Source of the DNA: Deferribacterales bacterium
GTDB taxonomy: Bacteria; Chrysiogenota; Deferribacteres; Deferribacterales; Geovibrionaceae
NCBI GenBank assembly: GCA_050253075.1
Contig: JBFWJS010000004.1
Span: 160,001 to 224,000, forward strand
Length of the DNA: 64,000 nt
Direction of reading: 5' to 3'
Below are positions 15,212 through 55,498 of the stretch, in pieces (positions within the stretch are counted from its first letter, which is position 1; each line of letters starts with the position of its first letter). The notes beneath the pieces were generated by a model, which saw only the letters and a program-made list of their open reading frames with translations, was not told the origin of the DNA and searched no databases. A program made the position numbers and the translations under genes.

Positions 15212-15559
15212 CTAGTGCTTTACTATAAGCGCAAGGAATGTGAGCGGTTCGAGGGTGTCGTTTTCCAGAGAGTGATTCTCACCGTCTTTGGTAACGGTGA
15301 GGTCGCCTGCTGTGACTCTCTCTAACTGGCCGTTGTCGTTAAATCTGCCTTCTCCGTCAAGGATAAGGTAAAACTCCATATCACCGCTGTGTCCGTGATA
15401 TCCTATAGAACTGCCAGGCTCGAGCTGCATCATGGCGAAGTTTGTTATCTCGCCGTTGAATCCTGCCGCCGCTTCATAAGCCATACGCATAGCTTTGCCT
15501 GTTCCGCCTCTGGGCTTTTCCATAGTCTGCTGTTCGAGTTCCTGTCCTCTTATTATCAC
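15212..15559 (-). CDS. Cupin domain protein
   Basis: GSSIGYHGH..EFYLILDGEG, GENHSLEN; GTG start after AGGAG. Confidence 0.85.
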   Translation of the reverse strand: MIIRGQELEQQTMEKPRGGTGKAMRMAYEAAAGFNGEITNFAMMQLEPGSSIGYHGHSGDMEFYLILDGEGRFNDNGQLERVTAGDLTVTKDGENHSLENDTLEPLTFLALIVKH

Positions 15560-15627
15560 GATAATGCTCCTCAAGTATCAGTTTAGTATTGTTATATTAA
15601 TGTATGGCTGATTTGTAAAGTTGAGAT

Positions 15628-15704
15628 GTTGCCATGAGTAAAACGAAGGACCTGAACCCGATGCGAGCTTTCAGATTCTTCGTCATGCCATTCCTCAGAA
15701 TGAC
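15628..15704. repeat. Palindromic GTCAT..ATGAC repeat (degenerate left arm)
   Basis: Right arm AGATTCTTCGTCATGCCATTCCTCAGAATGAC is nearly the reverse complement of the left arm of the 14523 copy. Confidence 0.8.
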
Positions 15705-15718
15705 TTTAAATAAAGGCT

Positions 15719-16114
15719 TTACCTTGCCTCTCCTGCTTTCTTTAATGCCCACTTGAACCCAATAGACACTGATTAATCAAAAGCTAATTCTCAATCCTAG
15801 AGAATTAGCTCTACACTCAGCAGGAACAAGTACCTGCCTCGTTTACGCTCCATTAAAACCTGCGGTTCATTCCGCAAGGCACATCCTGTGGCTTATCGGG
15901 CCTCTCCTGCTTTTTTGAGTGCCCATTTGAACCCAATAGGCACTGATTAATCTAGAGCTAATTCTCAATCCTAGAGAATTAGCTCTACACTCCGCAGGAA
16001 CAAGTACCTGCCTCGTTTACGCTCCATTAAAACCTGCGGTTCATTCCGCGAGGCACATCCTGTGCCTTATCGGGCCTCTCCTGCTTTTTTGAGTGCCCAT
16101 TTAAACCCAATAGG
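15719..16114 (-). repeat. Tandem 174-bp units: three 48-bp copies of the antiporter 3' end separated by two 126-bp hairpin-rich spacers
   Basis: Copies 16067-16114, 15893-15940 and 15719-15766 all read (P/S)IGFKWALKKAGEAR*; spacers 15941-16066 and 15767-15892 differ at about 5 positions. Confidence 0.95.
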
Positions 16115-17317
16115 CCCGATGATCTGGTTTATGGCGACGATGGCGAGGATGAGTGTCTGGAGCTGTATGCCCCAGTCGCCGAAATTCGCCCCGATTATCT
16201 TCGCAAAGCCTATGCTGACACCCGCCTGACCTATAAAGCCGAGGAACGAATATTTCTTAATATTATCCCCCTCTCTGATGATCATCCCGCCGATGTAGCA
16301 CCCTGCGAATGTCGCAAATGTCCTGAGTAAGACTATGGCAATGGCAGCCGCCCACATAACCTTCAAAGCGGTGAGGTCAACCACAGTGCCTGCGATGAAA
16401 AAGAATATAAGGTATATTATCCCCGAATTATCCTCGACATTCTTCACCAGTGAATGACCGTATTTCGAGAAGTTGTTAACGCCTATCCCCACAAAGAGGA
16501 AAACCAGCAGCGGATTAAGGTGCAGACTCTTCGCCAGCCATGTCATAGATATGGTGAAAAGGATGATGAAGACACCCTGATTCGCCTTTATATACTGTTT
16601 ATAAGATACGACAACAAGGCTGAGCGCCAGCCCCGCCAGTATCGATAAAAACTCCTCCAGCACAACACCCGTAACGGTGACCTCGCCGTCTGAGCTGTAT
16701 AAAGACAGCACAAAGGCAAAGAGTATGATGATGATAATATCCTTTATGATGGCACTGGTGAGTGTATAGTCCGTCATCTTGCCTTTTGCTTCGGACTCTA
16801 TTATCACGGCGACGGTCGTCGCAGGGGATTTCGCATTTGCTATAACGCTCATGAATATAATGGCTGTCATACCCGCAAAAACTGCATTAGGGAACATATC
16901 CCTGAAAAAGTACAGAAACACAAATACAATGCTGAATGTGATGACTATCTGCGACGCCACAAAGGTGAAAACTTTCCGCAGGTCTATACGGCTGTTGCGG
17001 AAGTGTATCTCTCCCCCTGCCGTCATGGCTATGATGCTGAGAGCAACATCATCTATGAAGCGGAGCTCGCTTATCATATCCGTGGTGAAGACGTTCATCA
17101 CATACGGCCCCAGCAGTATCCCCATGATGAGGAAGCTGGTGATGGTGGGCAGTCCGAACCTGCTGAGCAGTCTGCCCGAAACAAACGCCATGAAAAGCGC
17201 AAAGCCGAAAACCATAAATAGCGATTCAGGGCGAGCGGATATGCCCGACGTCTGTATTATATATAATATTGTAAGTCCTGCCGTCAGAGACAGCGCATCA
17301 ATCAGTTTTTCTTTCAT
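16067..17317 (-). CDS. Cation:proton antiporter family membrane protein
   Basis: GILLGP, KSPATTVAVI, IKD, GFIGQAGVSIG, IIGPIG; many TM helices. Confidence 0.85.
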   Translation of the reverse strand: MKEKLIDALSLTAGLTILYIIQTSGISARPESLFMVFGFALFMAFVSGRLLSRFGLPTITSFLIMGILLGPYVMNVFTTDMISELRFIDDVALSIIAMTAGGEIHFRNSRIDLRKVFTFVASQIVITFSIVFVFLYFFRDMFPNAVFAGMTAIIFMSVIANAKSPATTVAVIIESEAKGKMTDYTLTSAIIKDIIIIILFAFVLSLYSSDGEVTVTGVVLEEFLSILAGLALSLVVVSYKQYIKANQGVFIILFTISMTWLAKSLHLNPLLVFLFVGIGVNNFSKYGHSLVKNVEDNSGIIYLIFFFIAGTVVDLTALKVMWAAAIAIVLLRTFATFAGCYIGGMIIREGDNIKKYSFLGFIGQAGVSIGFAKIIGANFGDWGIQLQTLILAIVAINQIIGPIGFKWALKKAGEAR

Positions 17318-22409: not shown

Positions 22410-22620
22410 GAGACTCCTACGCTGACATATGTCAGCTCAGAGTGACGCATAAACACACACAAGGTGCAAGGACGCACCTCACGCAGTGAAAGCGAGGCAG
22501 ATCACACATGGGTTTGTGTTCAGAAGCGAGTAGTTCTAGGCGGCTTTTAATATAAATTTTCTGAGCATACATAGAGTATGTGATGAAAATTTTATTAAAA
22601 ACAACGAAGAAATACGAAGG
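22410..22620. repeat. Composite intergenic cluster of hairpin repeats
   Basis: Half-copy of the GTCAT family (22410-22446), a hairpin module resembling the 126-bp spacer (22463-22521) and a long imperfect stem-loop (22526-22620). Confidence 0.5.
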
Positions 22621-41175: not shown

Positions 41176-41409
41176 TTAATCTTTATTCTGCTGTTTAAAG
41201 AAATCAATGAAAGACACGAGGTTTTCTTTTTTGGTCGCTTCGATATTCTCATTTAATATCGCCTCATAGACTTCTTTACGATGGACGCTCACATCCTTTG
41301 GAGCGTCAATTCCGATCTTAACATTGCGACCGGATACATCGACGATTTTCACCTCGATACCGTCACCGATAACGATGCTTTCATTTATCTTCCGTGATAA
41401 TACAAGCAT
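41176..41409 (-). CDS. csrA: Carbon storage regulator CsrA
   Basis: [28 protein letters not shown]. Confidence 0.95.
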
Positions 41410-54560: not shown

Positions 54561-55498
54561 TAATTATTTCCATGCTGCTCACAGCGGCAGTTTCATACGC
54601 AAAGCCGAATATATACGTAAGCATCCTGCCTCAGAAAACATTTGTGAAAGAGATAGCAGGCGACAGGGCAAACGTAAACGTTATGGTTATGCCGGGCGCC
54701 AGCCCTGCAACATATGAGCCGAAGCCGAAACAGATGGCTCAGCTTTCAGAGACAGACATATATTTCTCTATCGGAGTACCATTCGAGAGGGTCTGGCTGG
54801 ATAAATTCGCATCTATCAATAAGAATATGAAGATCGTCCACACTGATGAAGGCATAAAAAAACGCACGGTGGAAAAACACGTGCACCATGACGAAGAGGG
54901 CGAAGACCACGACGAACACGGCGAAGAGCAAGGTCATGACGACCATGATGACCACGACAAGCATGCAGAGCACGATGATCACGACCATGAAGGCGAGCAT
55001 GACGACCACGACGGGATAAAAGATCCCCACGTTTGGCTCGACCCTATCCTTGTAATCAAACAGGTAGAGATTATCACAGAAGAGCTGTGTAAAGCAGATA
55101 AAGACTCTTGCGGCTTTTACACAGAGAATAAGAATAAATTCATTCAAAATGCAGAGCTGCTCGATGCGGAGCTTCATAAGATATTCAAAGGGAAAGATGA
55201 TGTGCACTTTATGGTATTTCACCCTTCATGGGGCTACTTCGCCGACAGATACGGACTGCACCAGATACCCGTGGAGCTCGAAGGCAAGGAGCCGAAGCCC
55301 GCAGACCTGAAAAAGTTCGTAGACACTGTTAAAAAGCTGAAGCTGAACTCCATCTTCATACAGCCGCAGTTTTCAAAGAAAGCAGCAGAGCTCATCGCAG
55401 ATGAAACAGGCGCAAAGGTGATAGCCGTCGACCCTCTGGCTGAGGACTGGCACGACAACCTCGTCTATGCGGCAAAGCTCATAGCAGGAACCCTTTAG
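54548..55498 (+). CDS. znuA: Zinc ABC transporter substrate-binding protein with His/Asp-rich loop
   Basis: PATYEP, long HD/HE loop, DPHVWLDP, HPSWGYF. Confidence 0.88.
   Translation: MRIIIIISMLLTAAVSYAKPNIYVSILPQKTFVKEIAGDRANVNVMVMPGASPATYEPKPKQMAQLSETDIYFSIGVPFERVWLDKFASINKNMKIVHTDEGIKKRTVEKHVHHDEEGEDHDEHGEEQGHDDHDDHDKHAEHDDHDHEGEHDDHDGIKDPHVWLDPILVIKQVEIITEELCKADKDSCGFYTENKNKFIQNAELLDAELHKIFKGKDDVHFMVFHPSWGYFADRYGLHQIPVELEGKEPKPADLKKFVDTVKKLKLNSIFIQPQFSKKAAELIADETGAKVIAVDPLAEDWHDNLVYAAKLIAGTL

Follow-up and report, generated by a model that had tools for sequence, protein, structure and literature searches.

Short structured repeats between duplicated gene ends in a Deferribacterales genome and its relatives

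REP/BIME, ERIC, Correia and BOX elements as well as MITEs are short, structured, intergenic and multi-copy sequences that often lie at gene ends and form small tandem arrays; we know of no description of long duplications of coding gene ends as a feature of these families. The repeat family analyzed here is likewise short, structured, intergenic and multi-copy, with arrays at gene ends. Unlike these repeats, it lacks inverted repeats at its ends and a short target duplication of constant length, and the genome has no match to a RAYT or Y1 transposase; its copies are also strongly diverged, with compensatory changes in the stems.

A duplicated gene end is better known from integrative elements. 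Phage 21 and e14 integrate in icd, where they target the 3′-end of the gene and restore it with a copy of their own. One account (PMC5704250) places ICEs, IMEs and integrase-less remnants (CIMEs) at gene 3′-ends, with attL and attR kept. Similarly to the 3′-end integrative elements and CIMEs, our family shows the gene end twice as direct repeats, mainly silent differences in the displaced copy, and tandem accretion. In contrast to integrative elements, its insert is 100–145 nt long and carries no genes; dozens of genes per genome are involved, each with its own tail; the length of the repeat and the junctions vary, and no integrase has been linked to the family.

Some features also recall the CsrB, RsmY and RsmZ small RNAs, as these are presented in PMC4347634: a size of ∼100–145 nt, GGAs in hairpin and internal loops, a hairpin 1 fitting the SELEX consensus and a terminator-like 3′ hairpin. 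The family differs from them in reaching about 57 matches per genome rather than 1–5 and in the position of its elements, directly behind stop codons, with no recognised promoter belonging to the element and no Rfam match. To our knowledge, no CsrA antagonist RNA has been described in this phylum, and a literature search found none; nor did it bring up any account of repeats lying between duplicates of gene ends that have kept their coding character, or of such a family in the phylum. Overall, the family lacks the defining features of MITEs, REP/RAYT systems, retroposons and fixed-core integrative elements, and shares with Csr-type RNAs the motif alone.

Finally, in homology-facilitated illegitimate recombination one end of the incoming DNA recombines homologously and the other one joins illegitimately (PMC3240628). 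Such an event would yield a live tail (from the donor), an element and a distal tail (from the recipient), with a microhomology junction. The process is a general one that is not known to be tied to any particular repeat family; that it acted here is what we infer.

The antiporter locus and the repeat family

The window, i.e. the whole stretch of 64 000 nt that was analyzed, belongs to a genome assembly of 17 contigs that is 99.9% complete. On its minus strand it carries a Na+/H+ exchanger gene with a duplicated 3′-end (16067..17317; 416 aa ORF; PF00999, E 1.2e-21), the C-terminus of which is PIGFKWALKKAGEAR before the stop. A preliminary description, made from the letters of the sequence, had noted that the last 48 nt of the antiporter gene are present three times with two 126-nt spacers between them, and the coordinates on the minus strand bear this out. 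The live tail (tail X1; final 15 codons and TAA) at 16067..16114 is followed by element copy 2 at 15941..16066 (126 nt; match of the covariance model R1 at 15949-16075, 111 bits), the middle tail (tail X2) at 15893..15940, element copy 1 at 15767..15892 (126 nt; R1 match at 15775-15901, 103 bits; RNA fold) and the distal tail (tail X3), SIGFKWALKKAGEAR before its stop, at 15719..15766, all on the minus strand. In element copy 2, hairpin 1 with GGA in its loop is located at 16052-16066 (minus strand), and the terminal hairpin at 15954-15986 (minus strand) is followed by the 3′ linker GATTAATCAGTG. Tandem Repeats Finder (TRF) reported the region 15726-16115 as a tandem repeat with period 174, 2.2 copies and 94% matches; the 174-nt unit is composed of a family element of ∼126 nt and a 48-nt duplicate of the antiporter 3′-end. 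The layout can thus be written as tail-(element-tail)n, with n = 2 in the window.

The details of the three tails were described correctly as well. The middle tail has a single silent difference from the live one (TTT>TTC), and the spacers 15941-16066 and 15767-15892, for which about five differences had been given, differ at 5 sites. The distal tail is changed at 9 of 48 nt; eight of the changes are silent, CTC>TTA and CGA>AGG included, and the sole non-silent change is CCT>TCT (P>S) in the first codon, at the junction. The distal tail is likely the displaced former end of the gene, once working. A small in-frame ORF over the distal tail was considered and rejected: there is a TAA two codons upstream, and the one possible start before it, a GTG, lacks a ribosome-binding site.

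Directly behind the distal tail there is a second, unrelated short repeat of the TCATTCTGAGG...GAAGAATC type (15674..15706, no strand assigned), which marks the old downstream flank; many metagenome contigs end or branch at it. The next gene downstream, a cupin gene (15212..15574, minus strand), stands in the same order as in the element-free alleles of genomes G001 and G002. Reading of ORFs and Pfam domains in the surroundings of the antiporter locus revealed no enzyme gene, in agreement with the preliminary description. Repeats of the TCATTCTGAGG...GAAGAATC type were also seen behind other distal tails. They form, together with the GTCATTGCGAGG...GCAATC type, a second abundant family of short repeats, which frequently follows distal tails directly and has arrays of up to 5.7 units, found besides the window site 15674-15706 at C6:154590-155285, C3:84942-85357 and C2:254027-254363 of genome G000. 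Elsewhere in the window, a pair of short tandem repeats with periods of 21 and 27 (54885-55012) is rich in CAC, GAC and GAA codons and probably represents a His/Asp-rich coding repeat.

The preliminary description allowed that the spacer might be unique, which would have spoken against its reading; instead, the spacer is a member of a dispersed family of structured elements of 100–145 nt. Searching the whole genome with the spacer led to a related 121-nt tandem repeat on another contig, and TRF found intergenic tandem repeats of 100–176 nt in 1.8–5.7 copies, five of which share the modules of the window unit. A profile of 12 units detected 31 family copies in the genome (nhmmer, E up to 1e-3); model R1, built from 20 copies, produced 46 matches. 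Beyond this genome, R1 matched 19 of 41 relatives and 32 of 68 genomes of the phylum (14/15 in family f1, 16/21 in f7, 1/7 in f5; seven other families had no match), with up to about 57 matches per genome. A weak extra R1 match is present in the window at 22454-22602 (plus strand; 26 bits, E 1.2e-5). Three family copies in G000 lie directly before tRNA genes (C4:125478-125581, C6:248914-249012 and C8:38846-38949; loci L036, L040 and L042), and at L042 the tRNA start is inside the repeated leader TATAAGG|GCC.

The family consensus starts with the leader TAWAAGG, followed by hairpin 1, whose loop has the motif CA(N)GGA(N)G; it continues through TCNCGGAGCG, a variable hairpin, GCGGAGNGGGAG and a hairpin with the loop GTACTTGTTC, and ends with a hairpin of the form A-run/stem/YAGGAC/stem/T-run and the linker GNTTAATCAGTG. 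One window unit folds into four hairpins (z = -3.8; 0/200 shuffles fold equally well), and these include all four hairpins named in the preliminary description, which had also proposed a covariation check. Two modelled hairpins indeed covary strongly among 103 distinct sequences: 96.9% of cells pair versus 61.3% in shuffles, changes on both sides occur in 525 cells versus 144, and the covariation score is 0.82 versus 0.19 in shuffles and at most 0.16 in slid controls, all in an alignment fitted to the model, which favours structure. For the middle helix, a CTCNC/GN'GAG regular expression found 39 of 70 scored pairs to be Watson-Crick; this test is crude, as it left 57 of 127 sequences unmatched. 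A pattern seen by eye in this helix (TCGC/GCGG, TCTC/GAGA, TCAC/GTGA) may serve as a lead. No Rfam match to the element was found, either in window positions 15500-16300 and locus L003 at E up to 10 or at 20 genome loci at E up to 5; the scan of element loci returned tRNAs and chance-level hits, nothing else. The pattern CAGGATG-N5-TCNCGGAGNG, searched in genome contigs, was too loose: there were single matches in unrelated phyla, and none of the 80 matches listed was R1-positive.

Gene-end duplicates at other loci and in populations

As the preliminary description had suggested, we looked for other spacer copies between duplicated gene tails. The layout is present at three loci of the genome: the window locus, C1:723690 and C2:557815. 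At C1:723690, behind a class-II aldolase (fba-type) gene, the distal copy encodes YKAKNENILGSANRV and a stop, and differs from the live tail by V>I, one silent change and TAG>TGA; at C2:557815, behind an arsR-type gene, the tail copies are identical (34/34 nt). The sample from relatives included 93 of 107 R1 matches, on 86 loci of seven genomes, after exclusion of 4 same-place duplicates and 10 partial second matches of at most 38 bits. A flanking direct repeat was observed at 51 of these 93 elements. For 26 of the 93 it was of the gene-tail type: the second copy begins just behind the element, the first copy is, in 25 of the 26 cases, the end of a co-directional ORF, and the length varies from 21 to 123 nt (median about 53). 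Pfam domains reach up to the C-termini in 22 of 26 tail-duplicated ORFs, two loci of the genome included, with Lon, ParB, FliG, IlvD, MraW/RsmH, sugar transferase, response regulator, NifZ and HSP20 among the domains. The duplicated gene ends, with loci L094, L087, L093, L092 and L028 among them, include those of lon, parB, fliG, ilvD and class-II fructose-bisphosphate aldolase (in relatives and G000). The tail-element-tail layout is a recurrent hallmark of the family, always with the upstream gene running in the same direction, and both the observation of the repeat and its generality across loci are solid.

Another 25 of the 93 elements are flanked differently, by an additional upstream copy of their own terminal hairpin, a hairpin type almost confined to the family (15/17). 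The model favoured below gives no clear account of this form, which counts against it, as does a crude ORF test of gene ends beside the 93 elements, with convergent cases as frequent as co-directional ones (46 versus 43). Behind an antiporter orthologue at L015 (G003:C11:1-195) we saw another tandem repeat of ∼118 nt with no R1 match, which also copies the last 15 nt of the gene (GGTGAAGCAAAGTAA, then GGTGAAGCTAAGTAG, with a third start at the contig end), the tail copies differing by one silent change and TAA>TAG. As this repeat is outside the R1 family, duplication of gene tails is not confined to one repeat family.

The distal tails have kept a coding signature. Codon differences between tail copies at 23 loci in relatives were silent in 40 cases and non-silent in 18; with the genome's own loci added, 47 of 67 differences were silent. 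None of the 23 tail alignments was gapped; the stop codons of the two copies were aligned in 22 of 23, and in eight their identity differed. Random single changes in these tails would be silent in 21% of cases; a silent share of 35% is expected if the live tail accepts silent changes only and the spare tail decays freely. The P-value for 47/67 against this expectation, ∼6e-9, is too small, since the sample includes orthologous loci counted repeatedly (rsmH three times, L058 with L133, L047 with the C2 locus); despite this overlap, the direction of the silent bias is clear. By our own reasoning, gene conversion between tail copies should leave the 35% expectation unchanged. This supports the view of the preliminary description that the silent recoding cannot be the product of simple slippage and subsequent neutral decay. 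The silent bias and the kept frame and stop argue that the two tails diverged while both were gene ends, in different alleles or lineages.

In some cases the protein itself was affected: at L065, L081 and L092 the live C-terminus and the displaced one differ by 3–7 residues, which means that the element changed the end of the protein. At 16 loci in relatives and 2–3 in the genome, a clean distal tail passes directly into the former downstream flank. Judging by eye from three sister species, the live antiporter tail, not the distal one, appears closer to the genus. A degenerate pattern for any tail that encodes WALKKAGEAR and a stop had 0 hits in metagenome contigs, and neither a donor lineage with a distal-type live tail nor an element-free antiporter allele of close strains was found. 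An empty allele ending in the distal tail had been anticipated in the preliminary description; element-free alleles do exist in the sister species G001 and G002, which have the antiporter-cupin-ndk order without the element, but none with a distal-type live tail was found.

Gain of elements is seen at rsmH, for which 21 loci were found and 13 loci of family f1 were inspected. The element follows the rsmH stop codon in G002, G008, G010 and G012, while the site is empty in 9 of the 13 and then reads TAA followed by AG(G/A); the rsmH element is also present in G013 (L120). By eye, rsmH elements fall into three subtypes in different lineages, indicating independent gains.

Copy number varies in natural populations. 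Metagenome runs X3, X4 and X7, from three independent studies, contain contigs with the live tail, an element and a diverged distal tail; this one-unit allele lacks exactly 174 nt. Since contigs of three studies share the layout, the window structure is no assembly artefact, and the mis-assembly that the preliminary description named as a refutation does not account for it. The element of the one-unit allele is copy-1-like at the terminal-hairpin side and copy-2-like at the hairpin-1 side; such a chimera fits unequal recombination between the two copies. One copy versus two is thus explained by unequal homologous recombination, in place of the two insertions (or one insertion, then duplication) postulated earlier. 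In run X1 a short contig specific for the middle tail had depth 6.4, a contig of the chimeric variant 9.7 and the flanks 17, indicating that two-unit and one-unit alleles coexist there; the two-unit form is only indirectly supported by these depths, with no contig or long read across both units.

The distal tail in X3, X4 and X7 differs from that of the window at 3 of 48 sites (15727, 15752 and 15766), two of which turn its 5′ part into live-tail sequence; in the 520 nt left of the distal tail these runs have merely 3–5 differences. The 18 sites that vary in 16265-16544 all fall on third codon positions, and each of the three runs has two antiporter haplotype contigs, 5 and 9–14 sites off the window. 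We conclude from the third-position variation that diverged antiporter alleles co-occur and recombine in the metagenome populations.

Predicted RNA role of the element

We predict from the sequence and its folds that the element acts as RNA on the strand of the gene, as a module behind the stop codon that would bind CsrA via exposed GGAs. Of 127 copies, 106 have CA(N)GGA(N)G in hairpin 1, and in the 20-copy alignment the invariant columns of this hairpin are CA, GGA and G. The mean GGA count per element is 4.25 on the gene's strand, whereas shuffles have 2.79 and the opposite strand has 0.64; in predicted folds GGA is exposed in hairpin 1, on both sides of the internal loop and in the terminal loop. 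According to PMC4347634, the CsrA SELEX consensus is RUACARGGAUGU, with ACA and GGA invariant and GGA in a hairpin loop. Hairpin 1 fits this consensus, which is a resemblance only. A csrA gene is present in the window (at about 41257-41409) and in 36 of 41 relatives.

Some observations count against this prediction. The motif of the terminal loop is frequently CGA or TGA, not GGA. The window copy has no T-run behind the terminal hairpin, and a terminator scan found no canonical terminator at this hairpin. Rfam models of CsrB, CsrC and RsmX/Y/Z had no match in the window region (E = 10) or at 20 genome loci (E = 5). Counts of G-U versus A-C in two hairpins did not single out either strand. As to the neighbourhood of csrA, which we do not take as evidence, in one genus an element lies ∼75 nt from the csrA 3′-end, in convergent orientation (G010:C19:55667-56043 and G012:C2:189330-189709; L076 and L136); no element is beside csrA in G006, G015 and the window, and in G004 a weak match is located 235 nt behind csrA.

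Origin of the layout and its meaning

The junctions are informative with respect to the mechanism. As a rule the live tail extends to the stop codon, which is often inside the leader motif, and the 5′ junction is 0–25 nt before hairpin 1, or else the repeat takes in hairpin 1. On the other side the 3′ linker is cut at varying points, though always within about 20 nt behind the terminal hairpin; this regularity could equally indicate a site-specific enzyme, and is the best argument for one. At L047, L050, L081, L101 and in the window the distal copy begins with the linker version and the live copy with the gene version of the sequence (at L047, GCTTAATCAGTG versus GCCTAAACAGTG); microhomology at junctions was judged by eye. 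The search for mobility enzymes gave no Y1 transposase (PF01797 Y1_Tnp) in the genome, with the control genomes detected, and no reverse transcriptase (PF00078 RVT_1) in the genome; of 19 element-positive genomes, only 4 have the latter. Elements of different loci are at best 70–86% similar, over at most 133 nt; for the window element the best match elsewhere is 78% over 63 nt, and for those of L065 and L091 no close paralogue exists in four genomes of the genus. With close paralogues missing even though many of the tail pairs are identical, a recent jump from a locus of the same genome is unlikely.

The variable junctions, the outcome of the enzyme search and the lack of a close paralogue favour an illegitimate join at short homology. 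To the resulting explanation, in which the tail-element-tail layout is made by an illegitimate microhomology-guided join, reshaped by unequal homologous recombination and allelic exchange, with the element as a predicted CsrA-binding RNA, we give about even chances. The first join would connect the GNTTAATCAGTG-like linker of the element to a sequence resembling it that lies a few dozen nt into the gene end; with the leader TAWAAGG joined at the stop codon on the other side, two copies of the tail would result. The stable terminal hairpin may set the position of the join. The join itself could be made by homology-facilitated illegitimate recombination of an incoming element-bearing allele or by a template switch. 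Unequal homologous recombination between copies of the tail or of the element would then shift n among 0, 1 and 2. Silent differences would reflect the descent of tails from different working alleles, either because an element-bearing allele was imported from a diverged lineage or because recombination with other alleles subsequently replaced one of the tails.

One could speculate further, though we regard this extension as rather doubtful, that the element is an enzyme-free homing cassette, a structured RNA element spreading among orthologous genes of different lineages, with the ends of housekeeping genes swapped as a by-product of the spread of a CsrA-binding module. Its hairpin-protected 3′-end would set the illegitimate join, and the duplicated tail would permit clean loss. 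Being flanked by the gene and the duplicated tail, such a cassette could be carried by ordinary recombination, along with a foreign gene end, into relatives.

The alternatives involving a dedicated enzyme have to account for the same junctions. The preliminary description favoured a 174-bp non-coding integrative element with its own copy of the tail, integrated site-specifically in the tail by a recombinase acting in trans. The formula tail-(element-tail)n would be the outcome of repeated integration of a circle at an att site, and several observations agree with it: attL/attR-like direct repeats containing the gene 3′-end are present, distal tails resemble former working ends, the end motifs TAWAAGG and GNTTAATCAGTG are conserved, and the join is always near the 3′ side of the terminal hairpin. 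Integrase-less CIMEs and tandem accretion at gene 3′-ends are known as well (PMC5704250). Still, we consider this origin unlikely. Fixed ends, as expected of a defined integrative mini-element, were not observed; with a repeat of 21–123 nt and both junctions varying within the element, there is no fixed core or crossover. Each locus would require an element with the tail of that very gene, and the altered live C-termini of L065, L081 and L092 amount to an unfaithful replacement. No copy has a near-identical paralogue at another locus, which also tells against the mobility assumed earlier, no recombinase has been linked to the family, and none is encoded near the locus.

An active MITE-like non-autonomous transposon, moved by a transposase whose widely staggered cuts make long target duplications that include gene ends, would explain a dispersed family with end motifs, the duplicated target sequence that flanks 26 of the 93 elements as direct repeats, and repeated insertion in the TAA-AGG stop context of rsmH. 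We rate it as quite improbable: the ends TAWAAGG and GNTTAATCAGTG are not inverted repeats, the duplications have no constant length (21–123 nt), and the genome has no Y1 transposase match. Moreover, copies only 70–86% alike leave no room for a recent burst, though many duplications are (nearly) identical, and a silent-biased divergence is unexpected of target-site duplications. Even less credence can be given to a SINE-like retroposon, with element RNA copied into the gene end by target-primed reverse transcription. It would account for the varying duplication length and 5′ boundary, and the element does resemble a small RNA gene; against it, RVT_1 is absent from the genome and from 15 of 19 element-positive genomes, the element continues beyond the terminator-like hairpin and there are no recent copies, so that the probability is very small.

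Another scenario, replication slippage that duplicates the tail together with the element, after which the last element copy would be lost and the spare tail would decay neutrally, has a low probability. Forms with a full tandem or an internally deleted second element do occur (L050, L097, L104, L113, L047, rsmH of G012 and C2:557815), and copy number changes by recombination. However, slippage yields (tail-element)2, not tail-element-tail; the clean distal tails at 16 loci in relatives and 2–3 in the genome run directly into the old flank; those with a different C-terminus (L065, L081, L092) cannot be copies of the live one; and the silent share of 47/67 exceeds the expected 0.35. Least probable of all, to the point of being hardly credible, is an assembly artefact or a mixture of strains with no biological repeat. 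The assembly does consist of 17 contigs, run X1 mixes forms and no read spans two units; against this, tail, element and diverged tail are found in contigs of three other studies, and the layout recurs in many genomes, single-contig ones included (G002, loci L047, L067 and L091). Readings as a DGR, integron attC, Xer/dif or CRISPR-type system were tried and rejected: the changes are not confined to adenines, the search for an RT was negative, and the architecture of the site does not agree with these systems.

If the favoured explanation, the illegitimate join followed by recombination and allelic exchange, is true, the family would represent repeats with an unusual mark, namely gene ends that are duplicated and still look like coding sequence, and would show at which places and by what route small structured elements are gained and lost at gene ends with no dedicated enzyme. 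The last codons of core genes (lon, parB, fliG, ilvD, rsmH, fba) would be replaceable along with the element. For annotation of these genomes, it would account for many of the small tandem repeats found behind genes and for many contig breaks there; and the phylum would possess many candidate CsrA-binding RNAs.
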